Shown here: one piece after another, positions 1,690 through 51,244 of the stretch
Layout of the letters: the number at the start of each line of letters is the position of its first letter
Position numbering within the stretch: the stretch's first letter is position 1
Origin: a virus
Virus genome (UHGV): UHGV-0074814
DNA: 52,958 nucleotides
Reading direction: 5' to 3' (one strand)
Program-made: the position numbers and the translations under genes
The notes under the pieces: model-generated
The model's database searches: none
What the model saw: only the letters and a program-made list of their open reading frames with translations
What the model was told of the DNA's origin: nothing

Positions 1690-3579
1690 ATGAAATCCGA
1701 AACGCTAACCATCCAGCAAATTTTCCAAAATCAACGACAATATCGTGTTCCATTCTATCAACGTGCCTACGTATGGACGCAACGAAACCAATGGTCAGCT
1801 TTGTTGGAGGATATCTTCGAAAAAGCACAGAGCCGACTTTCGGGAACAAAACCAACCCCTCATTTCCTCGGCGCGGTGGTGCTGGAACCTCAACTCAAAA
1901 ACAGCTTGTTAGGTGTAGATACCATACATATTATTGACGGCCAGCAACGTTTAACCACTCTTCAATATATTCTGGCATCCATTCGATTATCATTGCGTGC
2001 TACAGGCCTTTCTGAACTGGAAGGGTTAGTATTGACTTGCTTGAAAAATACAAACGAAGCAACGATGAGAAATAAAAAGGTAGAATGCTTCAAACTGTGG
2101 CCAACTTTTCGAGATCAAACTCATTTTATTCAAAGTCTTAATGTTGATAATATTGACGATCTCCGTAATGTATTTTCTGATAGCTTCACGCAACATGGTA
2201 CGTTACGTAAACATTTCAACCACCCGCCGTCACTAGAGGCATTATGGTTTTTTACTGAAGCCTTTATAAAATGGATTAAAATAGAAAACCACTCACCACA
2301 AGAAAATGCTGTAGCACTAATTGAGGCTGTCTTGACGGATCTGAAACTGGTAAGCATATTTCTCGAAGCTGAAGATGATGCCCAAATAATTTTTGAAACA
2401 TTAAATGGGCGAGGAGCGGAACTTCATGCAACGGATCTTATTCGCAACTATATCTTTATGTGCGCTGAGCATGAAAATATTAATGCTATTGAATTATATG
2501 AAAATGAGTGGAAGATCTTTGAAGATAAATACTGGTCGGAAAAGCAACGCCGTGGACGTATTAATAAACCACGCATGGAGTGGCTTGTACATGCGACATT
2601 GCAATCAGAAAGGCAGCGTGAAATTGATCTGTCTCGCCTTTACAATGAGTATCGTGATTATGTAAGTAAGGACTTGCCTTCACAACGAGCAGATCTGCAA
2701 GTAAAGCGCCTCAAACAATATGCATCACAATATAAAGAATTGGTTGGTGGTTTTGGCACAACCCCCATCTCACACTTTGGACATCGCATCGCAGCCTATG
2801 ATGTGACGACACTCTATCCGCTTGCTTTGTTCATTTCGATAGCTAACATCGCCGATGATGAGAAAGCAGCCATGTATAATGATCTTGTCTCCTACGTAGT
2901 ACGAAGATCCGTATGTGGCCTGACGCCAAAGAATTACAACAATGTATTTATGAATGTATTGCGACACTTGTCTAAAACGGAAATTTCCAGTGTTGAGTTA
3001 CGTAATATCCTCAATAGCTTAAATGGCGAAGCCTCACGTTGGCCTGGGGACTCAGAATTTCTCAACGCTTGCATCAATGCTCCACTTTATCCTGGCAGGC
3101 TCGACGCACCGAAAATGCGCTCAATGTTAACGGAACTTGAAAGAGAACTTTGTCGCCAAGTGAAGACAGAAAAGCCTGATGTTCCAAATCTTTCTAATCT
3201 CGATATCGATCATCTTATGCCTCAAAGTTGGTATTCCTGTTGGCCTCTCGAAAATGGTCATATGGTGACAAATTCAGATGCTACGGTAATGAACCAAATT
3301 GTTCTGTCTGGAACCGATCTTACCCCTGAACAGCTACTGGTAAGGAAACGGCAACAAGCGATAGCTACGTTGGGAAATCTAACTTTGCTTAACCTTAGCG
3401 TAAACCGTTCCGTTCAGAATGCTGTATTTCTGAAAAAACGTGATGCTCTCATCGTCCACACCAATCTACGACTGAACATACCACTTATACTTAAGGATAA
3501 ATGGGATGAGAGTGAAATACAGGAGCGAGGTAAAAAGTTGGGGGAAATTGCATTGAAAGTATGGCCAAAATACGATTAA
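1690..3579 (+). CDS. DUF262/DUF1524 family protein, GmrSD-like type IV (modification-dependent) restriction endonuclease candidate
   Basis: N-terminal FYQRAYVW and IIDGQQRLTT (DUF262/ParB-like DGQQR motif); C-terminal DIDHLMPQS His-Me/HNH-like motif (DUF1524); SD AGGTAA 5 nt before ATG. Confidence 0.6.
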   Translation: MKSETLTIQQIFQNQRQYRVPFYQRAYVWTQRNQWSALLEDIFEKAQSRLSGTKPTPHFLGAVVLEPQLKNSLLGVDTIHIIDGQQRLTTLQYILASIRLSLRATGLSELEGLVLTCLKNTNEATMRNKKVECFKLWPTFRDQTHFIQSLNVDNIDDLRNVFSDSFTQHGTLRKHFNHPPSLEALWFFTEAFIKWIKIENHSPQENAVALIEAVLTDLKLVSIFLEAEDDAQIIFETLNGRGAELHATDLIRNYIFMCAEHENINAIELYENEWKIFEDKYWSEKQRRGRINKPRMEWLVHATLQSERQREIDLSRLYNEYRDYVSKDLPSQRADLQVKRLKQYASQYKELVGGFGTTPISHFGHRIAAYDVTTLYPLALFISIANIADDEKAAMYNDLVSYVVRRSVCGLTPKNYNNVFMNVLRHLSKTEISSVELRNILNSLNGEASRWPGDSEFLNACINAPLYPGRLDAPKMRSMLTELERELCRQVKTEKPDVPNLSNLDIDHLMPQSWYSCWPLENGHMVTNSDATVMNQIVLSGTDLTPEQLLVRKRQQAIATLGNLTLLNLSVNRSVQNAVFLKKRDALIVHTNLRLNIPLILKDKWDESEIQERGKKLGEIALKVWPKYD

Positions 3580-25423: not shown

Positions 25424-26599
25424 ATGGATATAACTTGTTTAGAATGTGGCAATGTTCTTGACGACCCAACTGTAGCTTGCGATAAATGCGGTGCCACGCC
25501 TCATGTTGTAGTGCTGGGCAAACAATCGTACTTTCCTATTGGTGCTGTAACAGCAAATCTTGAAAAAAATGATTCAAGAGCATTTGATTATCGATTAGGT
25601 GAAGTTTGGGATCTAAAAAATGAAGTCACATCTGAATTCATAACCAGAATTGAGAAAAAATTTAGCCGAAAAAACAAATTTCATAACTTCCTAGACTCAG
25701 ATCACAACCCTTCATCCATTCCTACGATCCTAAAAAAATACATTAATAAAAATAATGAATTCATTGATTTATCTAGAGCTATAATAGAGAAGCTTAAACA
25801 TAATGCTAATAACGAATCGAGAGTTGCCCAACTTCAGGGGGGGAGCGTTGTTTTCATCCACTATAAGTCTACCGAACCAGAGGATTTGGGGAAACTTCTA
25901 ATCGTAATGGTTGATAAACAAAGCGCCTATGACTTTGATTCGGATAAGTTGACCCCAACAAGATTAAATCCAATTAATACCGATGCCTTACGGCAGGCTG
26001 CGATGTTCGATTTAACTTTATTCGAAGCCAGTTATCCAGAAAACAAGGGTGACTCATATGTACATTTCTTGCAAGGTAAATCTAAAAGCGATTTTTTCAA
26101 AGACTCATTAGGTTGCCGACATGATTCGGACAATAAAAGAAGCATTCAGCAATTATTCAGTGCTATAGATATTTTTGCTAGTAAAAACTCACTCGGTCGT
26201 GTACTGCGTGATACTATTGACAATGAAGTTAAATCCTTACTGGAAAAAAAATCAAAAGATAAACACGGAAATAAGTCCGTTAAGATAGAGGATATTTCAA
26301 AAATAATTGACTCATGCCTGACTGATTCACACAAATGTAAGGGAACGTTTGTCGATTTTGTTAATCTTAATGGTTTCCAGATTGACCCTCAATTTGAACC
26401 AACTCCTAAAGCAGCTGAAAGCGCGCTTACAATTGAAGTGGCAGATAACGACAATAATTTTAAGTTGAAAATAATGCGTGGAGCTATTGGAGACGAAAAG
26501 TCAAATAAGCCTGTAATTCTCACTGACAACAAATGCGAAATTGTGATAAAATTGAGTCAGGCAAATTATGATGAACTCAAAAGATATAGAGACAGCTAA
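25424..26599 (+). CDS. zinc-ribbon protein with NdpA/YejK-like (NA37 nucleoid-associated) domain; candidate defence component A
   Basis: N-terminal CLECG-N10-CDKCG zinc ribbon; central GGSVVFIHY...YVHFLQGKSKSDFFKDSLGC resembles YejK GGIVLFCHY...[23 protein letters not shown]; AT-rich relative to flanks. Confidence 0.5.
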   Translation: MDITCLECGNVLDDPTVACDKCGATPHVVVLGKQSYFPIGAVTANLEKNDSRAFDYRLGEVWDLKNEVTSEFITRIEKKFSRKNKFHNFLDSDHNPSSIPTILKKYINKNNEFIDLSRAIIEKLKHNANNESRVAQLQGGSVVFIHYKSTEPEDLGKLLIVMVDKQSAYDFDSDKLTPTRLNPINTDALRQAAMFDLTLFEASYPENKGDSYVHFLQGKSKSDFFKDSLGCRHDSDNKRSIQQLFSAIDIFASKNSLGRVLRDTIDNEVKSLLEKKSKDKHGNKSVKIEDISKIIDSCLTDSHKCKGTFVDFVNLNGFQIDPQFEPTPKAAESALTIEVADNDNNFKLKIMRGAIGDEKSNKPVILTDNKCEIVIKLSQANYDELKRYRDS

Positions 26600-37824: not shown

Positions 37825-38085
37825 ATGAGGTTATCAAAAATGCTTCAAATGCTGACACTTGAGGAATGGGCTGCGGAAAAATTTAGGAGTAATCCTCCAA
37901 GTGTGTCCACATTGCGTCGTTATGCTAAGCAGAATTTATTTTGTCCACCAGCAATGAAACAAGGTCGACTCTGGCGAGTACGTGAGGACGCAGAGTTAGT
38001 TGGGGAATTAGTTACTCCAGTAATCAAGAAAAGTGATTCTATTATTCTGCAAAGGATTTTAAGCAATGGCAGCCAGACCACGTAA
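37825..38085 (+). CDS. excisionase (lambda Xis-like); start may be one of two downstream ATGs
   Basis: MLTLEEW...STLRRYAKQNLFCPP resembles lambda Xis; overlaps integrase start. Confidence 0.6.
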   Translation: MRLSKMLQMLTLEEWAAEKFRSNPPSVSTLRRYAKQNLFCPPAMKQGRLWRVREDAELVGELVTPVIKKSDSIILQRILSNGSQTT

Positions 38086-39193
38086 AAATAATGTTTCAGT
38101 ACCTAACTTGTATCCGCTTTATAGTAGAAAAGTAAATAAAGTCTATTGGCGATATAAGCATCCAGTGACCGGGAAATTTCATTCGTTGGGCACAAATGAA
38201 GCTGAAGCTATTGCTATTGCCACTGAAGCTAACACTCGTCTGGCTGAGCAAAGAACCCGGCAGATTCTAGCTATCAGTGATAGGATCGCAACCAGCAAAG
38301 GAAAAGCGATCACAACGTCAACCTGGTTAGATCGCTATCAAGCGATCCAGGATGACAGGCTCAAAAGTGGTGATATAAGACTCAACACCTATAAGCAAAA
38401 AGCTAAACCAGTATCCTTGCTCAGAGAACGAGCAGGAATGAAGTTGATCTCATCCGTTGATGTTAGAGATATAGCACAATTGCTTGATGAGTATATTGCA
38501 GCTGGACAGCCTAGAATGGCCCAAGTCGTTAGGTCTGTATTGATCGATGTGTTTAAGGAAGCACAGCATTATGGCGAAGTTCCGCCAGGGTATAACCCTG
38601 CTCTTGCGACGAAGCAACCCAAAAGAAAAATTACCCGTCAACGCCTCAGCCTGGAAGAATGGCAAAAAATATTCGATATAGCAGACGCCAGTCATCGTTA
38701 CATGGGAAATGCCATGCTCCTAGCTTTGGTCACTGGGCAGCGTTTGGGAGATATATCCAAAATGAAATTTAGTGATATTTGGGAAGATCATCTTCACGTC
38801 ATTCAGGAAAAGACTGGAAGCAAAATCGCTATCCCTCTTTCTCTTCGCCTCAATGCGATTAACTGGAGTTTACGCGATGTAATAGCCCGCTGCCGTGACT
38901 ATGCAGTCAGCCCATACCTAGTGCATTTTTTCCGTTCAACTTCACAAGCAGAACGTGGGGCACAGGTTAAATCCAATACATTGACGATGAACTTTAGTAA
39001 AGCGAGAGATTTAGCAGGAATTGACTGGGGTGATGGCTCACCCGCAACATTCCATGAACAAAGATCGTTATCTGAACGCCTGTACAAGGAGCAAGGGATA
39101 GATACCAGAAAGCTACTTGGGCATAAAACACAACAACAAACCGATCGTTACCATGATGACCGAGGGAAAGGTTGGAGCAAAGTAGCTTTGTGA
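38066..39193 (+). CDS. tyrosine integrase (lambda Int family, e14 IntE-like)
   Basis: 375 aa; C-terminal catalytic region with R...HxxR...Y (HKTQQQTDRYHDD); adjacent to Xis and att-side icd repeat. Confidence 0.85.
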   Translation: MAARPRKNNVSVPNLYPLYSRKVNKVYWRYKHPVTGKFHSLGTNEAEAIAIATEANTRLAEQRTRQILAISDRIATSKGKAITTSTWLDRYQAIQDDRLKSGDIRLNTYKQKAKPVSLLRERAGMKLISSVDVRDIAQLLDEYIAAGQPRMAQVVRSVLIDVFKEAQHYGEVPPGYNPALATKQPKRKITRQRLSLEEWQKIFDIADASHRYMGNAMLLALVTGQRLGDISKMKFSDIWEDHLHVIQEKTGSKIAIPLSLRLNAINWSLRDVIARCRDYAVSPYLVHFFRSTSQAERGAQVKSNTLTMNFSKARDLAGIDWGDGSPATFHEQRSLSERLYKEQGIDTRKLLGHKTQQQTDRYHDDRGKGWSKVAL

Positions 39194-39403: not shown

Positions 39404-40519
39404 TTAAATTAAATCAAATAGCCCATGTTCATCTATAGCCTTTGAACTAATTAAGTTCGCGGCTTCTATGTCATTGTCACTTGCCTCAGAAATAAGGAAA
39501 AATGAATCAACATGATTTTGCAAAATAATTTCCTTATACTTCTTGAGCCATTGTAATTTACCTGTAGTGAACAATACTTTACGCGGTAGCAAAATACGGC
39601 TAAAAACTGATGGAAGATACTCACTTCTATTAAATGGAATAAAAGGGTCGCCTAAAGAAAGAATAGTTAGACGATTAAATTCACCGTGCGAATTCAATTT
39701 TTCAGCTGATTTGGCTATACCACTTGGTAAAAAAACACCTGTCTTGATACCGTTGCGTAAAGCAACAACAGCCATCATTTTATCAAAGGCAGTACCTCCA
39801 AATAATAAGGAATATCCTTTTTTAACAGAAAGATCAATAGTATCAAGAACAACTTGTTTTTCTATATCACTTGGTGACGTGCTCGAAATTATCGAAAGAT
39901 CAAAATCAGTAAATAACTGCCCAGTATAATAAAGATTTTTGCCGGTGAAAGTTGACAACTTTAAAGGAAACATTTTATCATCATGCTTAATTTCAGATAC
40001 ATTAAGATCTGTTAAGGATGGATAGTTAAAGTTTGGTGAGGCTTTTCCGTGTTTATTATTTTTTGATGCCTGCGGACTAAAAACTAGAATTTCATTTTTA
40101 TTATTACACAGGTAATCCTGTATCATTTTTTTTACAATATCCCAATCAAGACCACCGTGACCACAACCTAAAGCTGGCAGGGTGATTGTTTTTCCATGTT
40201 TATTATCCAAATATTTCGAGAGCCAATGCAGTCCTTTTTCGATATATTCGTACTTAGACTTATTTCTCCAATGATCCTTGGTGGGAAAGTTTATGATTTC
40301 TATTTCCTTACCATACGTATCATTACCTTTCCAAACAGCTGGTCTTCCTGGAGATATTTCTCCTTTTTTACACAGCAATACGTATTCATTATACATTTCA
40401 GGAAACTTATTCTTAAAAGCAAAAGCAACCCCTGCCCCCATTACACCAACACAATTAACTGTATTAATTCTAATGTCAGCAGCATAATCGAAAAAATCAC
40501 CATCAACATATCTAATCAT
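39404..40519 (-). CDS. macro-domain protein (DarG/TARG1-like) with C-terminal Rossmann-like domain; candidate antitoxin
   Basis: GDFFDYAADIRINTVNCVGVMGAGVAFAFKNKFPEMY and ALGCGHGGLDW macro motifs; start set at ATG with SD AAGGAGG (ORF track extends to 40645); AT-rich. Confidence 0.55.
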   Translation of the reverse strand: MIRYVDGDFFDYAADIRINTVNCVGVMGAGVAFAFKNKFPEMYNEYVLLCKKGEISPGRPAVWKGNDTYGKEIEIINFPTKDHWRNKSKYEYIEKGLHWLSKYLDNKHGKTITLPALGCGHGGLDWDIVKKMIQDYLCNNKNEILVFSPQASKNNKHGKASPNFNYPSLTDLNVSEIKHDDKMFPLKLSTFTGKNLYYTGQLFTDFDLSIISSTSPSDIEKQVVLDTIDLSVKKGYSLLFGGTAFDKMMAVVALRNGIKTGVFLPSGIAKSAEKLNSHGEFNRLTILSLGDPFIPFNRSEYLPSVFSRILLPRKVLFTTGKLQWLKKYKEIILQNHVDSFFLISEASDNDIEAANLISSKAIDEHGLFDLI

Positions 40520-40991
40520 AAAACCTCCTTTGGTCAGAGTATACATCCTTATTTCTGGCTCTTCAATTCTATTGTCAAAAACTTTTACAAAGTCTGCATC
40601 AGTAAAACTGATGGCGCATTTTAAAATTAAAATCAATATGTCCATATCAAACGTTATATTTGTTATTTTTTGTATTTATTATTCATATCCATCATGTGCT
40701 ATTAAATCGCCCAAAAGAACATAATAAATTATGTGCACCACTTTCTTCTTATTGAATTTTGGATTACATTACGATCTAAATTAGATCTTTTGCCAATATC
40801 ATAAACATATGCAGCAAACGTTGCAACAAGCTGTTCTCATTCTAACAGTTAGTAGAATATAAACTCTGTAATTAGCACACTGAATTCCCTTCATCTATGA
40901 GTTACAACATCCTTTAAGTGAATAGTATTGTTAGTTTAAATCTATTAATATCATTCATAAAACTATTTTATATAGTTAAAGTCATTATAAA

Positions 40992-41226: not shown

Positions 41227-42573
41227 TCATAAACTGTTCCCCTGCAATCTTTGGAGAACTTCATCCCGGAGATCATCGATCCCGTCAGAAACCTGAGCTA
41301 ACCAAACTTGACTTAATGAGCCAATATCAGCCTTACTTAGGGCTACTAACATATTGATATCTTCAGAAGATGTAACTATATCGAACAACTGATTTTTATT
41401 CCTCCCTTTAGCTACTATTTCCCCCAATAAATCATCATACGTAACTAACATCATTATTTTTCTAACTAGATCGGTTTGTATGACTGGCAGATCTTCTGTC
41501 AAAATTCGTTGTAGCATCGCAAGTGACTTCCTAGGATGCTCTCCATCTGCCTCATGCATGTAATTATTATTCCAACGTGTTTTAGGCCCTTTGCCTATAT
41601 CATGCAAATAAGCGGCCAACTCCAAAACTTCCTGATGAATAGAGTCTAATTGATAAAACTCTGGTGAATTAACTACAAGACTAGCCACTCGTCGACTATG
41701 AGAGCCAACATCTTCATTATGAGGCCCGTAGCTCGTCCCCAATCCATCGATATCTTCAAGCTCTTGGATGGAGGAGAAATTACCACGAATTGCACTTAGA
41801 GCATCACTAATACTTTGAAATTTTGGCCTCGTTTCTCGTTGAAATGAAGTTACATATTCAATAGCTTCATCAAAAAGCATTTTTAACACTACCGGTCCCG
41901 TGACTAAGGATGAGGACCAGTTTCCAGGTTGATAATAATAATGTTGAAAATCACCCTCAACAATATTTGGTGGAACAATACCTTTGTTCTGGAAAATACT
42001 CCTCACAATATCAGACATAGAACGATTCCATGTAATTATCTGATTTATTTCGCTTAAAGAGACATGATCTGGCAGCAAAAGTTCTGCCATCTTTTTATGC
42101 CTCTGAGTCTCGTCAGCATAACCCCATGCATTATTATCTATGGTAGCCCAATCTAATACATCAAGCTGGTCAGCTTGAGTATTACCAGAATAAAAGTTCG
42201 GTGGATTAACTGTATTTGCGGAAGCATCTGTAAAATATGACCCATTCCTTGTTTCGAGTGATAATATAGAAACTGAAAGATAGATAATAAATTGCTGATC
42301 TACATTTTTTTTATGAAGAACAGACAATTGCATGGGCGTTTTTTTTGCAAAATAAAAAGGAACATAATCATGAACACAACGACCATTCGTATTAGGCACC
42401 TGCATCACTGCCCTACGCCCCTGTATTCCTTCATCAGCAACATTCACATGTGATATACGACGTGCAATTTTCTGATTAGTCGAAAACAGCCCAGTTTCAA
42501 TTATTGATTCAAGATTATCTACTGACGTAAAGTGATATGCATTTCGGTGTCTATGGTGAACAGGAACTGTCAT
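41227..42573 (-). CDS. DarT-like (DUF4433) ADP-ribosyltransferase domain fused to HD phosphohydrolase domain; candidate toxin
   Basis: N-terminal YHFTSVDNLESIIETGL, HDYVPFYF and YFTDASA resemble DarT; C-terminal HSRRVASLVV...LAAYLHDIGK is an HD motif; SD GGGGGA; AT-rich. Confidence 0.5.
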   Translation of the reverse strand: MTVPVHHRHRNAYHFTSVDNLESIIETGLFSTNQKIARRISHVNVADEGIQGRRAVMQVPNTNGRCVHDYVPFYFAKKTPMQLSVLHKKNVDQQFIIYLSVSILSLETRNGSYFTDASANTVNPPNFYSGNTQADQLDVLDWATIDNNAWGYADETQRHKKMAELLLPDHVSLSEINQIITWNRSMSDIVRSIFQNKGIVPPNIVEGDFQHYYYQPGNWSSSLVTGPVVLKMLFDEAIEYVTSFQRETRPKFQSISDALSAIRGNFSSIQELEDIDGLGTSYGPHNEDVGSHSRRVASLVVNSPEFYQLDSIHQEVLELAAYLHDIGKGPKTRWNNNYMHEADGEHPRKSLAMLQRILTEDLPVIQTDLVRKIMMLVTYDDLLGEIVAKGRNKNQLFDIVTSSEDINMLVALSKADIGSLSQVWLAQVSDGIDDLRDEVLQRLQGNSL

Positions 42574-42928
42574 GTATCCCCCATGAAAAACTATAAAAAT
42601 TTAGGTAGTGTGCTTTATATTATTACAGTAATTGTAAATTACCGATATAGGATATCAACCTTCCTGTGATCTAGGTCACTCAGGATGAGCAACTTCCTAT
42701 TGATTAGGATTCAAAATGTTTGAAATGTGCGCTTACAGAACCACAGGCCACTTTGAGCGAAGAACAGACCTAAATATAAACGAGGGTTAATCAGCAATAA
42801 TTATAATAAACTGAGGTATGCCTAATTGGAACTTGACAATATAACTACCATCTCTCCCTAAACAACTAGGAGTTTTGATAACTTATTTTGATAAAATTTT
42901 GATAACCGTTAGCAGACTAACAAAAAAC

Positions 42929-42951
42929 AACGGGAGCGTTACACTCCCGTT
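42929..42951 (-). terminator. rho-independent terminator hairpin downstream of icd 3' copy 2
   Basis: Stem aacgggag/ctcccgtt, 7-nt loop; on minus strand followed by GTTTTTTGTT. Confidence 0.45.
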
Positions 42952-42974
42952 AATAGATTTAACAAATCACGATA

Positions 42975-43139
42975 TTACATATTCTTGATGATCGCATCAC
43001 CAAATTCTGAACATTTCAGCAGTTTAGCACCTTCCATCAGACGTTCGAAGTCATAGGTTACGGTCTTCGCGTTGATTGCGCCTTCCATACCTTTAACAAT
43101 CAGGTCTGCGGCTTCAGTCCAACCCATATGGCGCAGCAG
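42975..43139 (-). pseudogene. icd: icd 3'-terminal fragment (copy 2, attL-side)
   Basis: Translation [54 protein letters not shown]-stop; ~9 mismatches vs copy 1 over 165 bp. Confidence 0.8.
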
Positions 43140-43598
43140 TATATAAAAATTATGTATTCAACTCGCTGATATTTAATCATAAATATTATTTTCTTGTCTT
43201 TGTATTAGCCAAAATCAACTTTATTCAACCGTTTGATTTCATTGACGTTCGTTTTTATTTTGGGGAAAGATTTTCTCTACCATTTATATCAAAATTACAA
43301 GTCTACATTTTATTAACATCTCAATACATGTGTGGCCTTGCAAGCCATTGCGAGGCCTTATGTGTCTCAGTTTTGTCCCGCCTTGTATTACGACTTGCAT
43401 AGCCAATGAAGATAAACGTGACGACAAACAAAGCAGCTGTCTTCTTTTCTTTCACACTTTCCCCACTCAGCAGCATGCATACCTTCTACTATAACTGTAG
43501 TGAATGTCTATTATGAGCGAACTGCGGACATCGTGGAGACAACATGCTGCTGGGTGCGGATATCCCATGGCACGTCATATCGCTCGCCGTATTACTTG

Positions 43599-44369
43599 TT
43601 ATTTTTTTGAAACGAGAAGTTGATACAATTCCTTCAGGGATAAGGCTAATAACTCATTCTTCCTGATGAGATCTTTATCAGCGTCTATACCCTCTGCGCA
43701 TGATTCATTTAAATAGTTCAGTGTTTCCTGATCATCATCCAAGCATTCATAGCTGCCTGAATAAAATTCATCGCAACTTGCTTTGTTATTTTTGTCAATG
43801 TAACCAATGCATTGAATCACGCCTTTAACAACTTTAGCAGCAGAAAAAACAAAGTAACTGCAGTCATTTATATAGCGTTCAATATCAAAAATCATATAAA
43901 AATAGTGCATAGAGTGTTTTTCAATTTCAAACTCACTTGAAATCATAGCTATTTCACATTCAAGGTCTTTCAGACCATCTAACATTATGGAAAGTTTACA
44001 TTGTTTTTCTTGCACAGTTTCATACTTAAATGACTCTCTCCCCTTTGCCCTGACATTTATTCTTTCTTCAATTGCATAAATATAAGCAGGATATACACGC
44101 GACCACACTTGGTTTATTTTTAGGATTAACCGGCCTCTTTTCAGCCTTTCTTTTGTAGCTATAAATTCTGCATATAGCGCAGCATCCTCTTCGCACCATA
44201 CATCAACTTTTCGTTTATAACCCAACTTTAATTCTTTCCCTACGCATTCAGGAAACAAAGGATCAAAGTCCTTTAAGTATTCAAACTCACTTAGATAGAA
44301 TCCTGTCTCATAACGATTAAATAATTTCCTAAACTCTTTCCCACTTAAGGTTTTCATTGTATCAATCAC
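43599..44369 (-). CDS. hypothetical AT-rich cargo protein (256 aa)
   Basis: Clean ORF with strongly AT-biased codon usage; no motif recognised. Confidence 0.4.
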   Translation of the reverse strand: MIDTMKTLSGKEFRKLFNRYETGFYLSEFEYLKDFDPLFPECVGKELKLGYKRKVDVWCEEDAALYAEFIATKERLKRGRLILKINQVWSRVYPAYIYAIEERINVRAKGRESFKYETVQEKQCKLSIMLDGLKDLECEIAMISSEFEIEKHSMHYFYMIFDIERYINDCSYFVFSAAKVVKGVIQCIGYIDKNNKASCDEFYSGSYECLDDDQETLNYLNESCAEGIDADKDLIRKNELLALSLKELYQLLVSKK

Positions 44370-44963
44370 TCTGTTTTCATAAAAGCAAAGTCAACAAGAT
44401 AAAACAATAAAAACTCTTACACAACCAGCTGATGTTTTTAAAATAGAGGATAATATAAGACAAGCATAACCTCGTTCACTTCAATGCTACTCCTATCGTT
44501 CTTTTGCGTCACAGAGCGCCTGCCGGACAACTGCATCATAGACCAAACGGAACTGCTTCCGTCGATTAATCAGATGGCAGCGCATAAACACGCTCAACAA
44601 CCCGTTTGACTGCTTCAATTTTAAGCTCTTCGGAATAACGCTTACCGTGTAAGTCTCCCTGCAAAACGAGCTATCAACTTTTAAGGAGTCTCTGGCCCCC
44701 CTGCTTCCGCTCCTGGCACACAGCAGCCCTAGAGACAGTGGAGTAAAGTCATGGAGGCTCGGTGGGGGGAGGTGCAAATCCTCCCATACAAAAAATACGA
44801 AAATCAGTAACGGCTAGAAATCATTCAATACATGCACTCTCGAAATTGCATCAGCCAACCGCAAAACGTTATTTCAAAGCCTACTAGCTGCCTTACTTTT
44901 TTCCTCAATAACGCGTCGCCAGCAGGAAACAACCTAATCCCTGTTTTGGGCCTCAAAGCTGCT

Positions 44964-44982
44964 AATGATAATCATTTTCATT
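44964..44982 (+). promoter_or_regulatory. Fur box upstream of sitA
   Basis: AATGATAATCATTTTCATT matches Fur consensus GATAATGATAATCATTATC at about 15 of 19 positions. Confidence 0.5.
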
Positions 44983-45001
44983 TTGTATAGGCTGTGCTAT
45001 A

Positions 45002-45023
45002 AAACATAGCCGTTGCTATGTTT
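45002..45023 (+). promoter_or_regulatory. MntR operator palindrome upstream of sitA
   Basis: AAACATAGC-cgtt-GCTATGTTT perfect inverted repeat, the known MntR box pattern. Confidence 0.55.
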
Positions 45024-45055
45024 GTTCTAATTTTGCTCACTATAGGTACTAAATT

Positions 45056-45970
45056 ATGCACTCGATAAAAAAAGTAACCATGCTCTTGGGGGGGCTCGCA
45101 CTCACCTGCTCGATCGCATTTCAGGCAAGTGCAACTGAAAAATTCAAGGTCATTACAACATTTACCATCATCGCGGATATGGCCAAAAACGTGGCGGGAG
45201 ATGCTGCAGAAGTCTCATCCATAACCAAGCCTGGTGCAGAAATTCATGAGTATCAGCCTACCCCTGGCGATATTAAACGTGCGCAGGGGGCACAACTGAT
45301 TCTCGCCAATGGTATGAATCTGGAATTGTGGTTCCAACGCTTTTACCAGCATCTCAATGGGGTTCCAGAAGTAATTGTCTCTTCGGGTGTGACGCCTGTA
45401 GGGATCACCGAAGGACCCTATGAGGGCAAACCTAACCCCCATGCATGGATGTCGCCAGATAATGCTCTGATTTACGTCGATAATATTCGTGATGCGTTGA
45501 TAAAATACGATCCGGCAAATGCACAAACCTACCAACGCAATGCCGATACTTATAAAGCCAAGATTACCCAAACCCTTGCCCCCCTGCGTAAGCAGATTAC
45601 GGAACTCCCTGAGAATCAGCGATGGATGGTCACCAGTGAAGGGGCTTTTTCTTATCTCGCACGCGATTTGGGGCTAAAAGAGCTTTATCTGTGGCCGATT
45701 AATGCCGATCAACAAGGAACACCGCAGCAGGTACGTAAGGTTGTTGATATAGTTAAGAAAAATCATATCCCGGCAGTCTTTAGCGAGAGTACGATTTCCG
45801 ATAAACCAGCGCGTCAGGTTGCGCGTGAAACCGGCGCACACTACGGCGGTGTGCTCTATGTCGATTCCCTGAGCACAGAAAACGGCCCGGTACCGACGTA
45901 TATCGACCTTCTTAAGGTTACTACCAGTACGCTGGTACAGGGAATTAAAGCTGGGAAAAGGGAGAAATAA
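45056..45970 (+). CDS. sitA: Mn/Fe ABC transporter periplasmic binding protein SitA
   Basis: Signal peptide, 304 aa, first gene of four-gene ABC operon with Fur and MntR boxes. Confidence 0.8.
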
Positions 45971-46797
45971 TGATGCAATCTGCAGGCATTGTCGTTAATG
46001 ATGTTACTGTCACCTGGCGTAACGGGCACACAGCACTGCGCGATGCATCCTTCACAGTACCAAGTGGATCTATTGCCGCTCTGGTTGGGGTAAACGGTTC
46101 CGGAAAATCGACGTTGTTTAAAGCGATTATGGGATTTGTGCGTCTGACCAGCGGAAAGATATCTGTTCTGGGTATTCCCACGCGACAGGCGTTACAGAAA
46201 AACCTGGTTGCCTACGTCCCTCAGTCAGAAGATGTTGACTGGTCATTTCCTGTACTGGTGGAAGATGTGGTGATGATGGGCCGCTATGGGCATATGGGTA
46301 TGTTGCGTATCGCCAAAAAGAGGGATCGTCAAATTGTCACCGATGCGCTGGAACGTGTCGATATGGTGAATTTTCGCCATCGACAAATCGGCGAGCTTTC
46401 CGGTGGACAAAAGAAACGCGTCTTTCTGGCGAGAGCGATTGCACAGCAGGGTGATGTGATCCTGCTGGATGAACCTTTTACTGGCGTTGATGTGAAAACC
46501 GAAGCCAAAATCATCAGCCTGTTGAGGGAGTTACGCGCGGAAGGCAAAACGATGCTTGTCTCAACACACAATCTCGGATCCGTCACGACATTTTGCGATT
46601 ATACGGTCATGGTCAAAGGCACCGTCCTGGCAAGCGGGCCGACAGACACCACTTTTACAGCCGAGAACCTAGAGCTGGCTTTTAGCGGCGTACTGCGCCA
46701 TGTCACACTTAACGGCTCGGAAGAAAGCATTATTACTGACGATGAACGCCCTTTTGTGGCTCATCGACCGTCAGCGGTGCAGAGGGAAGAAAGATGA
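45970..46797 (+). CDS. sitB: Mn/Fe ABC transporter ATP-binding protein SitB
   Basis: Walker [10 protein letters not shown], signature LSGGQKKR, Walker B ILLDEP. Confidence 0.85.
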
Positions 46798-47651
46798 ACG
46801 TGCTACTGGAACCCTTCAGCTATGAATATATGCTCAATGCGATGTGGGTCTCGGCGATGGTCGGCGGTCTCTGCGCTTTCCTGTCATGCTATCTGATGCT
46901 AAAAGGCTGGTCGCTGATTGGCGATGCGTTGTCGCACTCTATTGTCCCGGGTGTTGCGGGGGCATATATGCTGGGGCTTCCGTTTTCTCTGGGAGCCTTC
47001 TTTTCCGGCGGACTGGCTGCGGGCAGCATGCTGTTTCTTAACCAACGCACCCGCTTAAAAGAAGATGCCATCATCGGTCTGATCTTCTCGTCCTTTTTTG
47101 GCCTGGGGCTGTTTATGGTGTCATTGAACCCGACATCTGTGAACATTCAGACCATCGTCCTGGGCAATATTCTGGCAATCGATCCGGCGGATATCCTGCA
47201 ACTCACTATCATTGGCATTCTCTCGATCATCGTGCTTTTTTTCAAATGGAAAGATCTTATGGTGACCTTTTTCGACGAGAATCACGCCCGTGCTATTGGA
47301 TTGCATCCGGGCAGATTAAAACTCCTCTTCTTCACCCTGCTGTCGGTTTCGACCGTTGCGGCGCTGCAAACGGTTGGTGCCTTTCTGGTGATCTGTCTGG
47401 TGGTGACTCCCGGTGCAACAGCATGGTTGTTAACCGATCGTTTTCCCCGCCTGCTCATGATTGCTGTAACTATTGGCAGTGTAACCAGTTTCCTCGGCGC
47501 GTGGGTCAGTTACTTTCTGGACGGCGCGACAGGTGGAATCATCGTGGTGGCGCAGACACTGCTGTTTCTTTTAGCATTTGTCTTTGCGCCCACCCATGGG
47601 CTTTTGGCAAATCGTCGGCGTGCGCATAAGGCGCTGGAGGATCGCTCATGA
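46794..47651 (+). CDS. sitC: Mn/Fe ABC transporter permease SitC
   Basis: 285 aa polytopic membrane protein, overlapping starts in operon. Confidence 0.8.
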
Positions 47652-48505
47652 TGGCATTATTACTGGAGCCACTGCAGTTCACCTTTATGAGTCACGCACT
47701 GCTGATTTCACTGGTAGTTTCCATACCCTGTGCGCTGCTGTCGGTCTTTCTGGTCCTGAAAGGTTGGGCACTGATGGGTGACGCGATGAGTCATGCGGTT
47801 TTTCCTGGCATCGTGCTTGCCTGGATTCTGGGGTTACCTTTGGCTACAGGGGCATTCGTCGCCGGAGTATTCTGCGCGGTGGCGACGGGATACCTGAAAG
47901 ACAACAGCCGAATCAAGCAAGATACAGTGATGGGGATTGTTTTTTCTGGCATGTTTGCCGCAGGTCTGATCTTGTATATTGCAGTCAAACCAGACGTACA
48001 TCTTGACCATATTCTTTTCGGCGACATGCTCGGGATAACCATCGGCGATATAATCCAGACGATGATTATTGCCGGGCTGGTTACACTTGTTATTAGCGTA
48101 AAATGGCGGGATTTTTTGCTGTTCAGCTTTGATTATCAACAGGCGCAGGTAAGCGGTTTGCATACGAGATGGCTGCATTATGGGCTGCTGTGCATGGTCT
48201 CTCTGACCATTGTGGCGACGCTGAAAGCGGTAGGTATCATTCTCTCCATTTCTCTGCTCATTGCGCCTGGCGCCATTGCGGTACTCCTGACACAACGCTT
48301 TCATATTGCGCTCCTACTGGCGACTGGCATATCGGTAATAGTGTCAATGACTGGTGTCTGGTTGTCCTTTTTTATCGACAGCGCACCAGCTCCGACGATT
48401 GTCGTCTTATTCGCGGTTTTGTTCATCATGACGTTTGCCGTTACCAGCATCAACGCACGCAAAAAGGGAAACTCCCATACACAGGATCTGTTATCACCCA
48501 ATTAG
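47648..48505 (+). CDS. sitD: Mn/Fe ABC transporter permease SitD
   Basis: 285 aa polytopic membrane protein paralogous to SitC. Confidence 0.8.
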   Translation: MMALLLEPLQFTFMSHALLISLVVSIPCALLSVFLVLKGWALMGDAMSHAVFPGIVLAWILGLPLATGAFVAGVFCAVATGYLKDNSRIKQDTVMGIVFSGMFAAGLILYIAVKPDVHLDHILFGDMLGITIGDIIQTMIIAGLVTLVISVKWRDFLLFSFDYQQAQVSGLHTRWLHYGLLCMVSLTIVATLKAVGIILSISLLIAPGAIAVLLTQRFHIALLLATGISVIVSMTGVWLSFFIDSAPAPTIVVLFAVLFIMTFAVTSINARKKGNSHTQDLLSPN

Positions 48506-48596
48506 CACAACATCCGAGGACAGCAACACCCGATACTTTTTCCTGGCTTCCAGCAACGGGGTTTCTTCCTCCGTTGCATATACAGCTCACCTTTTT

Positions 48597-48890
48597 TCAC
48601 CCACGATTAACCAACAGCCAGACCAGCAGACACGCCACCACCGGCACAGCAAAATCCATCAGGCTTGCCACATCCCAAGCTCGCGGATCAAAACCGCCCC
48701 ACCACGGCATATTCATTCGCTTGCCATGCCCGAACATTTCAATCCAGCGATATTCTGCCTGGGTATGTTCACGCGCAATGAAGAACGTACAACCGGCTAT
48801 CGCTCCGTAAGCCCAGTTTCCGGTAAAAAGACCAACCAGTATCTGCGCAGCCACAGCACAAAGTGCATGAAGTAAGGGGCTTATATCCAT
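48597..48890 (-). CDS. hypothetical membrane protein
   Basis: 97 aa with two hydrophobic segments. Confidence 0.3.
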   Translation of the reverse strand: MDISPLLHALCAVAAQILVGLFTGNWAYGAIAGCTFFIAREHTQAEYRWIEMFGHGKRMNMPWWGGFDPRAWDVASLMDFAVPVVACLLVWLLVNRG

Positions 48891-48902
48891 TATTTCCTCC
48901 TT

Positions 48903-49181
48903 TCAGCTCCATTCCCGAAGCGGTGTTTCCAGCTCCACGACATAATCAGAGAATACAGAAACATCAAACAAGTCATCAAGAATGCGAATGTTGACAAAAT
49001 AACCATCATTCCGGATACAGACAGGTTCTCCCTCTTCTGTTACCCCTGTTTCTGTGTAGGTGAAACCAATTTCATCAACTAACAGTTTATTCTGGAGGTC
49101 TTCATCTTCCGCCCAGCCAAGAGATGACAGGAAGGCCTTAAACTGCAGTTTGTCATGAAACTTCAAAGTTAAATCTTTCAT
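48903..49181 (-). CDS. hypothetical protein translationally coupled to side tail fibre gene
   Basis: 92 aa; start overlaps Stf stop. Confidence 0.3.
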   Translation of the reverse strand: MKDLTLKFHDKLQFKAFLSSLGWAEDEDLQNKLLVDEIGFTYTETGVTEEGEPVCIRNDGYFVNIRILDDLFDVSVFSDYVVELETPLREWS

Positions 49182-51244
49182 ACGACCTCTTTTAATTGCC
49201 TGTCATTTAATTCTTTATGCCATATGCGGAAATTGCGAATATGGCCAAACAGATGTCGTTCTCCAGTATTCGTCTGCCCTCCAAATCGGATATTTTTATC
49301 AGCGGTCACGCCATTATATTCACAATAAACTTCATTAACCGCTTTACCATTTGTCACCACATGAAAGTGACCATCAGCTTTTGCAATACATCCAAATGTG
49401 GTTTTCTCTGCAAATACATCTGTCGCTGCGCTATTAACATACGAGCCTGAAGGGTTTGACAGACTCATATATAACTTACCACTACCTCTGTTGATTGCTG
49501 CAATTGCTGATTGCCCGGTATTGGCTGCTGCTATATCCCACACGCGGGGTGCGGCGTTTGGTGCAATATCCCAGTTTTTATGAATCTCAAGTAAAAAAGT
49601 AAATGGTAACTTATAAAGATTATTTCTGGTGGGGATACTAACCAAATCACTGGCTCTTGTCGTTGCGCTGCCTCCTGAAATAATAAATGATGATACACAC
49701 GGCCCATTCTCTACTTGTGGGGTGGCAAGATAAATATAGTCACCAGATACTGTTGCCCCACCCTGCCCAGGAGAATACTGTATCTGAGAGCCTATTTTTA
49801 ACTCACCATCAATTGCCTGAATCGTTGCCTCTGCAAAAATCCAGCCCGTGGTCTTATCCTTCCTGACTCGTGCCGTAATTCTGCCGGCAGCACCACCTGT
49901 CATACTAATTTCAAGCGTTTGCGTATCAATGTACGCATCGCCAAGAAAAGTTGTTGCACTACCATCATACTTATCAAACCGTATACGTAACCTTACCTGT
50001 CGTTCTGTTTTAAAACGGCATGAGGTTGTCACGTACTTGTTATCGCCTGAGACATCAACTGACTTTGTTGCAGCAATTGATGCCATATTAATAGCCGAAG
50101 TTTGCCCAACCAGAGAATCGTTGCAGACAAACTTTCCATAAGTAAAACCAAAACTATCCGTCCCGGTTTCGGGCACATCCATGTTTGATGACTTCCCCCA
50201 GCTGGCTGGACTTTCCGAATTGAGCATGTAGTTCGTTCTTTGTCCCTCAATAAGCAGGCCATCACACTCAAATCGCGGCTCATTAATTTCCGCCGTTTTC
50301 AGTTCGCCAGATTTGTTGATATATGTTGCCGTTGATGCGCGACTGAAATTAACCTGTTTATCACTGGCGACCTGAACCACATCGTCACCAATAGCTATTT
50401 TTTTATAGCCCGGAGAAAAACCCGCAATCATATCCAGTGAATCGTTAAACGGTATCCACACATCAGGCAGCGGCGGCACTATATTCGCACAGGGCTCTGC
50501 AGTCACTTCCGCTGCGGCTTCTGCGCGGTCTGCCGCCTTTTCAGCTCGTGTCGCTGCCGACAGAGCCTCATCCTTTTTCTGCCCGGCCTTTGTTGCGTCT
50601 GCTGCGGCCTCCCGCGCTTTTGTGGTGGCGACTCCGGCATTTTCAGCGGCTGACTCTGCATTACGGCGGGAAGCCTCTTCACTGTCTGCGGAGGCTTCTT
50701 CTGACGCACGGGCATTTGTCTCTGAACGTTCTGCCGCTGTTGCTGCGTTTTGTGCGGCTGTTTTTGAAGAAGCTGCCGCTTTCGCGCTGTTACCTGCATT
50801 CGTCTCTGATGTTTTCGCCGCGTTCCTGGACGATGCCGCTGCTGTTTCTGATTTCTTTGCTGCCGCTGCGCTCTGAGAGGCGGCTTCAGCGTTGCGTGCC
50901 GCCTCTTCCACCATCTTTTCAAAACGATACAGTGCCTCCGGACAAACATCATCTTCTGTTGCAGCGCCCAGAAAATCATTCAATGTCCCCGGCTTAGAAT
51001 CCTCATACACGGTGATGGTCCCGGCATGTGAAGGCGGAAAACCTTCAACCAGCAGGGCGACGCTGTACTGGCCATACTCAACATCCATGCTGTAACGTCC
51101 GGCTTCATCCGGATTTTCTGAGGCCACCGTGTTCACCACAACTGTGGTGCTGTTACGTTTTGCTTTGAGCTGAATGGTGCAGTTCTGTATCGGTTTTCCT
51201 GCACCGTCTTTCAGCACACCTGAAATCTGTACTGCCATATTCAC
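49178..51244 (-). CDS. side tail fibre protein (lambda Stf-like N-terminus, Ala-rich stalk, distinct C-terminal domain)
   Basis: N-terminus MAVQISGVLKDGAGKPIQNCTIQLKAKRNSTTVVVNTV...GRYSMDVEYGQYSV nearly identical to lambda Stf as recalled. Confidence 0.7.
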   Translation of the reverse strand: MNMAVQISGVLKDGAGKPIQNCTIQLKAKRNSTTVVVNTVASENPDEAGRYSMDVEYGQYSVALLVEGFPPSHAGTITVYEDSKPGTLNDFLGAATEDDVCPEALYRFEKMVEEAARNAEAASQSAAAAKKSETAAASSRNAAKTSETNAGNSAKAAASSKTAAQNAATAAERSETNARASEEASADSEEASRRNAESAAENAGVATTKAREAAADATKAGQKKDEALSAATRAEKAADRAEAAAEVTAEPCANIVPPLPDVWIPFNDSLDMIAGFSPGYKKIAIGDDVVQVASDKQVNFSRASTATYINKSGELKTAEINEPRFECDGLLIEGQRTNYMLNSESPASWGKSSNMDVPETGTDSFGFTYGKFVCNDSLVGQTSAINMASIAATKSVDVSGDNKYVTTSCRFKTERQVRLRIRFDKYDGSATTFLGDAYIDTQTLEISMTGGAAGRITARVRKDKTTGWIFAEATIQAIDGELKIGSQIQYSPGQGGATVSGDYIYLATPQVENGPCVSSFIISGGSATTRASDLVSIPTRNNLYKLPFTFLLEIHKNWDIAPNAAPRVWDIAAANTGQSAIAAINRGSGKLYMSLSNPSGSYVNSAATDVFAEKTTFGCIAKADGHFHVVTNGKAVNEVYCEYNGVTADKNIRFGGQTNTGERHLFGHIRNFRIWHKELNDRQLKEVV

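Follow-up and report, generated by a model that had tools for sequence, protein, structure and literature searches.

Gene 31 of phage 21: a rare mobile cargo gene for a predicted excisionase-type domain fused to a helical bundle

The viral genome UHGV-0074814 (the window: the whole stretch of 52,958 nucleotides that was analysed) carries, near a prophage attachment site, gene 31 of phage 21, here called gp31. A sequence-only reading had listed it as an open reading frame (ORF) of 256 residues from a GTG, at 43599..44369 on the minus strand, and that frame is indeed found there. The best-supported description of gp31 is a mobile single-gene cargo, in which an excisionase-fold domain is fused to a helical bundle, and which recurs in hotspots of conflict between mobile elements. 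gp31 is a real gene under purifying selection, and a very rare one.

The locus and the gene

The window runs in the order ycgX, a 3'-terminal fragment of icd (icd'), prophage 1, a second icd', and prophage 2; the two icd' copies are 86% identical. Positions 42924-50357 are 99.3% identical to the b region of the lambdoid phage 21 (OL657228), where the side tail fibre gene is followed by a pair of small genes, then by sitDCBA, a pair of tiny ORFs, genes 31 and 32, icd', attP, int, and xis. The icd' repeats and the b-region match bear out the proposal that gp31 occupies an att-adjacent slot of prophage 2, with the icd repeat on one side and sitABCD on the other. In phage 21 the gene lies about 0.7 kb from attP, and points towards att and against pL. 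Full-length gp31 is present in 20 of 21 phage records (the remaining record is a 2.9-kb phage 21 fragment), and the arrangement sit, gp31, att was seen in the three phage records inspected: phage 21, Perceval, and PhiR47_2.

The gene had also been described as alone in its slot. This is not strictly so: a 51-residue ORF, gp32, lies between gp31 and icd', and a remnant of an IS3-family insertion sequence lies upstream. Moreover, gp31 and sit are separable, because one Escherichia coli lineage has sitABCD without gp31. In that strain (PRO_A-1474-6M-A_ESBL; locus L030, 6292-6791, where L numbers denote the loci compared), sitABCD is present in a phage-21-type remnant. About 500 nt of unrelated AT-rich DNA replaces the equivalent of window positions 43419-44919, starting at the same half stem-loop as lies in the window, TGAGCGAGGAGTGGACGT.

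Translation most likely starts at an ATG inside the listed frame. Residue 5 of that frame (beginning MKTLSGKEF) is the first residue in 20 of 20 homologues and in the PHROG 20520 profile, and the four preceding codons vary freely among homologues; the probable coding sequence (CDS) is therefore the 252-residue form (Table 1). The predicted AT bias is real: GC content is 34.1% (31% at third codon positions), whereas the window as a whole has 48.2%, and sitA and sitB 48-51%. The protein contains nine cysteines, in line with the cysteine content noted earlier. It is rich in Tyr, Phe, and Cys, mildly acidic (isoelectric point, pI, 5.3), and cytoplasmic by composition. A membrane or pore protein was considered and rejected, since no segment has transmembrane-like hydrophobicity (highest Kyte-Doolittle 19-mer score, 1.46).

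The sequence is already in databases, where annotation names the gene and gives no function. The window protein is 100% identical to phage 21 CPT_21_31 (UMO75446.1), annotated as hypothetical, as is the copy from strain Nissle 1917 (RefSeq WP_000567449.1). PHROG 20520, annotated as of unknown function, matches over its full length (E 1.4e-177; residues 5-256 against positions 1-252 of 252). All three entries describe the same protein in the same genomic position, with no difference from window gp31. The phage 21 genome announcement states that the morons of this phage differ from those of lambda, and leaves gene 31 unmentioned; a literature search found no paper on the protein. gp31 is best filed as an uncharacterised member of a familiar kind: the prophage moron, or hotspot cargo.

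Family, selection, and predicted fold

Among 5426 complete E. coli genomes, 760 (about 14%) carry gp31, 758 of them at 99% identity or more; carriers include Nissle 1917, UTI89, ATCC 25922, and ATCC 11775. A few strains have an IS1 insertion within the gene. A search of 5.8 billion proteins returned 22 matches, all at least 63% identical and about 255 residues long, with hosts in Citrobacter, Klebsiella, Mangrovibacter, other Enterobacteriaceae, and one metagenome-assembled genome from the Aeromonadaceae. Exhaustive HMMER searching of 1.84 billion cluster representatives gave one full-length cluster, fragments, and one distant protein, P0035 (27% identical to gp31, E 2.5e-4; 37% over 81 residues in the N-terminal domain). 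P0035 is encoded on a plasmid contig with an IncFII-type repA, and is a singleton, for which the search found no relatives of its own. Only three of 185,579 species-representative genomes encode a family member.

Length is conserved across these homologues, and pairwise ratios of nonsynonymous to synonymous substitution (dN/dS) among seven orthologues range from 0.16 to 0.41. Conserved homologues thus exist, and no homology to a housekeeping or structural family was found; either of the opposite outcomes would have told against the sequence-only reading.

An AlphaFold model built on a 21-sequence alignment is confident (mean pLDDT, the predicted local distance score, 91.6; pTM, the predicted template-modelling score, 0.83). 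It consists of a small β-α-α-β-β domain (residues 5-59) followed by four long helices (60-114, 119-151, 157-193, and 210-255). The small domain has the winged-helix topology of the AlpA, excisionase, and HTH_17 group, and its fold matches excisionase-type and MerR-type DNA binders, for example the GIsul2 excisionase (8c3t), RdfS, and HK022 Xis. The earlier statement that gp31 has no recognisable motif therefore needs dividing: there is no usable sequence-profile match, but at the level of fold there is an excisionase/AlpA-type winged helix. Pfam and NCBIfam gave no match to gp31, and the Pfam profiles Phage_AlpA, HTH_17, and MerR_1 matched neither the whole protein, nor the isolated N-terminal domain, nor any of the 21 family members, at E values up to 10. 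Sequence and profile searches of the PDB found only a de novo designed protein (E 0.07-0.4).

Comparison with known winged-helix proteins shows both likeness and difference. In the model, gp31 shares its fold with the AlpA and excisionase proteins of the MerR superfamily. Those are free-standing and 55-80 residues long, whereas the gp31 domain is fused to a 195-residue helical bundle, has an acidic recognition helix, and lacks a profile match. MerR-family regulators, like gp31, have a winged helix followed immediately by a long helix, and conserved cysteines in the C-terminal part. In contrast to them, gp31 lacks the second helix-turn-helix and wing, and forms an intramolecular four-helix bundle instead of a two-helix coiled coil; it also has no Pfam MerR match. 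MerR regulators combine an N-terminal helix-turn-helix, wing, and second helix-turn-helix with a helix that dimerises as an antiparallel coiled coil, and with an effector-binding loop at the C-terminus; gp31 does not have this combination. Within the N-terminal domain (pI 5.4), the wing (KLGYKRK) and helix 1 are basic, and helix 2 (LSEFEYLKDFD) is acidic.

Invariant positions, numbered here by the 256-residue GTG frame, include E102, R103, R107, E117-K125, Q186, C187, K193, C199, E201, and D211-213. Judged from helix topology rather than from coordinates, these residues appear to gather at the distal end of the bundle, opposite the winged helix, and this conserved tip would be the likeliest functional surface. 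C170 and H155 also are invariant, H155 within an invariant M-H-Y (154-156) at the end of the bundle near the winged helix. An RNase effector of the HEPN type was rejected because the Rx4-6H motif is absent; no other catalytic motif is recognisable.

A single-gene module and the repeats at its borders

Eleven independent gp31 contexts were compared at the nucleotide level. Similarity between them (81-89%) begins about 115-125 nt upstream of the ATG (window 44478), and ends about 85 nt past the stop codon in most contexts (window 43514), or within about 45 nt in L003, L014, L015, L053, and L054. No neighbouring protein is shared between contexts. By this nucleotide comparison, gp31 moves as a self-contained unit of about 960 bp, made up of its own upstream region, a single CDS, and a short 3' flank. 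Its carriers are varied: the b region of phage 21; an integrative and conjugative element (ICE) of C. sedlakii, within its cargo region; small islets adjoining a 200-residue tyrosine recombinase in K. variicola and C. telavivensis; chromosomal islands; and, for the distant relative P0035, a plasmid.

The upstream region has the core CATCAAyCGGTTGTGTAAGAGTnTnTATnGTTTTATCTTGTTGA, whose end portion is GTTTTATCTTGTTGA, and probably holds a promoter and 5' untranslated region. By eye, TTGTGT-17-TATCTT is probably a weak candidate σ70 promoter; a consensus promoter scan did not call it. The phage 21 record places a CII-type site (TTGTN6TTGT, of the TTGYN6TTGY type; record positions 26065-26078) just upstream of gp31, and two more inside gp32 on the opposite strand. 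The upstream site is at most phage-specific, because its first half-site hinges on a single base limited to the phage and E. coli version; it could be an adaptation to the lambdoid lysogeny circuit, or chance. No intrinsic terminator was found 3' of the gene, and Rfam has no match in or beside it. A 36-codon antisense ORF in the 3' flank was dismissed as non-coding, since it shows non-conservative changes between species.

In Intestinirhabdus alba, the 5' border of the module coincides exactly with the point, near residue 141, where the B gene of the defence system PD-Lambda-4 is cut off (GGTTA/TGCTTGTC, the stroke marking the junction; L017 9471-9941 compared with L025 4071-4604). PD-Lambda-4 A is intact. 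DNA downstream of the module does not resume PD-Lambda-4, whereas the intact E. coli locus continues past the breakpoint, so that the junction, as read from these sequences, is a replacement and not a simple insertion. Elsewhere, one and the same OrfA pseudogene of the IS3 family (ending GGME(V/L)NE) adjoins the module on its 5' side: in E. coli, Mangrovibacter, C. telavivensis, the contig from the Aeromonadaceae, and the metagenome contigs L053 and L054. Loci L003, L007, and L014 carry this remnant, and the CPT_21_30 entry of the phage 21 record bears a note consistent with the assignment.

Cross-context homology of the module breaks inside units of a repeat: 24-nt stem-loops of the form GTCCGCT-N10-AGCGGAC, which often occur in twos with about 18 nt between the units. 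Besides the unit in Table 1, the window holds a half copy at the end of the 3' flank (43514-43529) and a degenerate copy (42754-42769), both on the minus strand. In an alignment of the repeat (A5), 84% of pair cells are paired, against 34-55% in slid controls, and there is no covariation. Individual cargo genes, many with links to defence, have the repeat at their borders, in carriers that include the recombinase-associated islet and the ICE. Every intergenic junction of the C. telavivensis islet contains a whole or partial copy (L007 5280-10895); one unit stands on each side of the gp31 module in contig L056 (5900-6885); both cargo genes in the hotspot between the tail-fibre-assembly and sheath genes of a P2-like prophage are flanked by units; and a copy lies beside a GIY-YIG nuclease gene on a K. 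pneumoniae plasmid. Further repeat loci are L002 8553-13835, L024 2309-5496, and L023 1762-4067.

A full copy occurs in 37 of 5426 E. coli genomes, one in each, which is too few for ERIC or REP elements. Integron attC sites were rejected as well: the R' and R'' boxes (RYYYAAC and GTTRRRY) are absent, and the nearby 200-residue recombinase is not IntI. The repeat could be a cassette-exchange site; more broadly, it may serve in recombination, be left over from the end of a transposon, or act as an insulator. The 200-residue tyrosine recombinase (L002 9235-9837 and L007 5385-5987) is about the size of FimB and FimE, and its K. variicola and C. telavivensis versions share 82.5% identity. It stands at the head of the repeat-punctuated cargo arrays in which the gp31 module lies, and is a candidate enzyme for the repeats.

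Table 1. Features at and around gp31 (window coordinates)
Feature	Position	Strand	Remarks
icd 3'-end repeat (att-associated)	42886..43153	-	Divides prophage 1 from phage-21-type prophage 2; other copy at 578-848
gp32 of phage 21	43321..43476	-	51-residue ORF between gp31 and icd'; outside the mobile gp31 module
Conserved 3' flank	43514..43598	-	Ends in half copy of the 24-nt stem-loop repeat, GTCCGCAGTTCGCTCA, where cross-context homology stops
gp31 CDS	43599..44357	-	252 residues from ATG at 44357; listed ORF reaches GTG at 44369
Conserved upstream region	44358..44478	-	Travels with gp31; 5-8 contexts aligned, alike only from about -120 to the ATG
IS3-family OrfA pseudogene remnant	44479..44700	-	Frame translations ..YSEELKIEAVKRV.. 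and ..IEVNE/VML; abuts the 5' border of the module
Stem-loop unit CTGCTTCCGCTCCTGGCACACAGCAG	44701..44726		Copy of the cassette-bounding repeat; probable outer 5' border of the cassette
sitABCD Mn/Fe ABC transporter	45056..48505	+	Neighbouring cargo in the slot, divergent from gp31

The small neighbour gp32 is absent from all non-phage gp31 contexts compared. The phage 21 record calls it a putative membrane protein, with the hydrophobic stretch AALFVVTFIFIGY, and it may be a small toxin-like or att-arm-associated ORF. The gene ends in a stable hairpin, GGCCTTGCAAGCCATTGCGAGGCC. An ORF with 85% amino acid identity to gp32 adjoins an integrase in an O157:H7 island (L012 2504-2647), and the last 20 gp32 codons persist between envY and ompT in a strain that has an MG name and apparently derives from K-12 (L013 2505-2564).

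On the other side of the central icd' repeat, between it and the prophage 1 integrase (38066-39193), lie genes for DarG (413 residues; 39404-40645) and for a 448-residue DarT with a C-terminal HD domain (41227-42573), both on the minus strand and separated by a gap of 580 nt. The DarT-HD fusion looks unusual.

Defence neighbourhoods and possible functions

The position of gp31 invites comparison with other att-adjacent cargo. The sequence-only reading held that the equivalent slot of prophage 1 carries defence-like cargo, and it does: directly after the first icd', at 1690-3579 on the plus strand, lies a GmrSD-family type IV restriction endonuclease with both Pfam domains. McrBC-like systems hold the same slot in two other E. 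coli strains (L028 and L029), and McrA holds it in e14. All of these share with gp31 a slot between the icd' fragment and the tail-fibre genes. However, McrA, GmrSD, and the McrBC-like systems are recognisable type IV restriction nucleases, whereas gp31 has no nuclease motif.

Away from phages, the company of gp31 is often defensive. In I. alba, PD-Lambda-4 lies directly beside the module. In the metagenome contig L053, it lies between GmrSD with a nuclease-like protein and a CBASS cyclase with a four-transmembrane effector. Near the module in the Aeromonadaceae contig are a type I restriction-modification system with RhuM and YgjP, plus Imm50; in C. telavivensis, a nearby T5orf172 protein matches PDC-S57 and PD-Lambda-1. 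Genes of Mrr-like and ABC-3C/Lamassu type lie less than 10 kb from gp31 in two further contexts. Overall, bona fide defence genes lie within 3 kb in four of ten non-phage contexts (L007, L014, L017, and L053), and within 10 kb in two more (L002 and L005). Position and association, in the form of the att-adjacent slot and these neighbourhoods, constitute the strongest support for a role in defence.

This suggests, tentatively, that gp31 is a stand-alone phage-exclusion factor expressed by the lysogen. Orientation against pL, an upstream region of its own, and AT-rich composition argue for expression from its own promoter in the prophage, rather than in the early lytic programme. We infer a sensing step and an exclusion activity as follows. 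The prophage-expressed protein would act in conflicts between mobile elements, in a manner resembling abortive infection: the N-terminal winged helix would recognise the nucleic acid, or a DNA-handling protein, of the incoming element; and the four-helix bundle, whose conserved tip has many Cys and acidic residues, would mediate oligomerisation or a downstream effect. A precedent is BstA of Salmonella phage BTP1, a single-protein prophage defence with an N-terminal DNA-binding domain of the KilA-N type. By analogy, gp31 resembles BstA-type defences in being a single prophage-borne gene in a variable slot, with a small, putatively nucleic-acid-binding N-terminal domain and a helical C-terminal domain devoid of enzyme motifs. 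It differs in having an excisionase fold instead of a KilA-N-type domain, and, apart from the marginal match given below, it shows no similarity to any PADLOC model.

Several observations weigh against exclusion. The presumed recognition helix is acidic, and the pI of its domain is low, which makes classical sequence-specific DNA binding doubtful. Among the 5027 models of PADLOC-DB 2.0, the sole match was PDC-M13C, and it was marginal (E 0.0034, residues 5-29). Full-length fold matches are to generic helical bundles only (the CorA cytoplasmic domain, spectrin repeats, PhoU, and ClyA-type toxins), and a Foldseek search of the predicted viral structures in BFVD found nothing below E 0.15. The protein has no nuclease, NTPase, TIR, HEPN, or membrane domain. 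Four of the ten non-phage contexts (L003, L015, L056, and L008) have no clear defence gene nearby, and the neighbours of gp31 in phage 21 itself are sitABCD, not defence genes. The sample is small, about ten independent contexts, with neighbours scored without a formal background control. Finally, near-identity of gp31 across 758 E. coli genomes points to recent common descent, and is not proof of selection.

Other functions would account for part of the same evidence. The MerR-type features of the fold could belong to a DNA-binding regulator or sensor, although this is rather unlikely: the winged helix would contact DNA; the first helix and the bundle would dimerise; and the tip with its Cys, His, and acidic residues would sense metal or redox state. 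Such a protein would act on its own promoter or on those of the host, and might be a regulator of lysogenic conversion beside an Mn/Fe transporter. Its attractions are the N-terminal likeness to MerR and excisionase DNA binders, the 55-residue helix placed straight after the winged helix as in MerR proteins, the invariance of C170, C187, C199, H155, and D211-213, the basic wing and helix 1, and a strongly conserved upstream region that could hold an operator. Yet even at E 10 there is no MerR, HTH_17, or AlpA match in Pfam, the recognition helix is acidic, and reading the conserved upstream sequence by eye showed neither a palindrome nor a long-spacer promoter. The absence of sitABCD from every non-phage gp31 context excludes a dedicated sit regulator; and because the neighbours differ in every context, gp31 is not a dedicated regulator of an adjacent system. 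Less probable again is a counter-defence or host-takeover protein of incoming elements, one that might neutralise a host DNA-binding defence protein through an acidic protein-binding or DNA-mimicking surface. The acidity of the whole protein, of helix 2, and of the loop rich in DDD and E would suit that role, and the carriers (phage, ICE, and, for the distant relative, plasmid) all must enter new hosts. Lambdoid anti-defence genes such as gam and ral sit in the early operon. gp31, however, lies outside it, in the b region and against pL; it also is found in non-mobile chromosomal islets beside intact defence genes, and has no likeness to a known anti-defence family, since Pfam and PHROGs offer nothing beyond unknown function.

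A mobility accessory seems very improbable. Such a protein would act like a recombination directionality factor, binding the border stem-loops and aiding a tyrosine recombinase in moving the gp31 cassette and others. Phage 21 has its own Xis beside int, and at 252 residues gp31 far exceeds known directionality factors; no recombinase lies nearby in most contexts, other cassettes have the same repeats without a gp31-like protein, and the acidic recognition helix is again a difficulty. These points stand against an excisionase/AlpA fold that is the hallmark of directionality factors, the closeness of gp31 to attP in phage 21, the recurrence of stem-loops at the module borders, and, in two genomes, a repeat-punctuated array adjoining the 200-residue recombinase. 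The least probable of the alternatives is that gp31 is functionless in E. coli, a hitch-hiking remnant linked to useful sitABCD in a decaying prophage. E. coli copies at least 99% identical give no evidence of independent selection, some strains have IS1 in the gene, and one lineage keeps sitABCD without it; but orthologues in seven other contexts are full length with dN/dS of 0.16-0.41, the upstream region is conserved too, and functional phages (phage 21, Perceval, and the PhiR phages) keep gp31 intact. The remaining probability, after phage exclusion and these four alternatives, belongs to a function outside those considered.

A broader proposal, which is unlikely but consequential, extends phage exclusion to the repeats. 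gp31 would found a new anti-phage family, with an excisionase-like sensor and a helical-bundle effector. It would be one cargo of an unrecognised cassette-exchange system of the Enterobacterales, in which defence genes bounded by GTCCGCT-N10-AGCGGAC repeats are shuffled among hotspots of lambdoid and P2-like prophages, ICEs, plasmids, and recombinase-associated islets.

Nothing about gp31 is mechanistically surprising yet. Nevertheless, the gene is present in a textbook phage and in about 14% of complete E. coli genomes, medically relevant ones included, and has almost no relatives. If gp31 does confer a defence phenotype, it would represent a new defence family with an unusual architecture devoid of an enzyme domain, and would account for another cargo, in addition to sitABCD, of a prophage that is fixed in lineages of extraintestinal pathogens. 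Moreover, the border stem-loops may point to a general mechanism that swaps defence genes between the hotspots of mobile elements.

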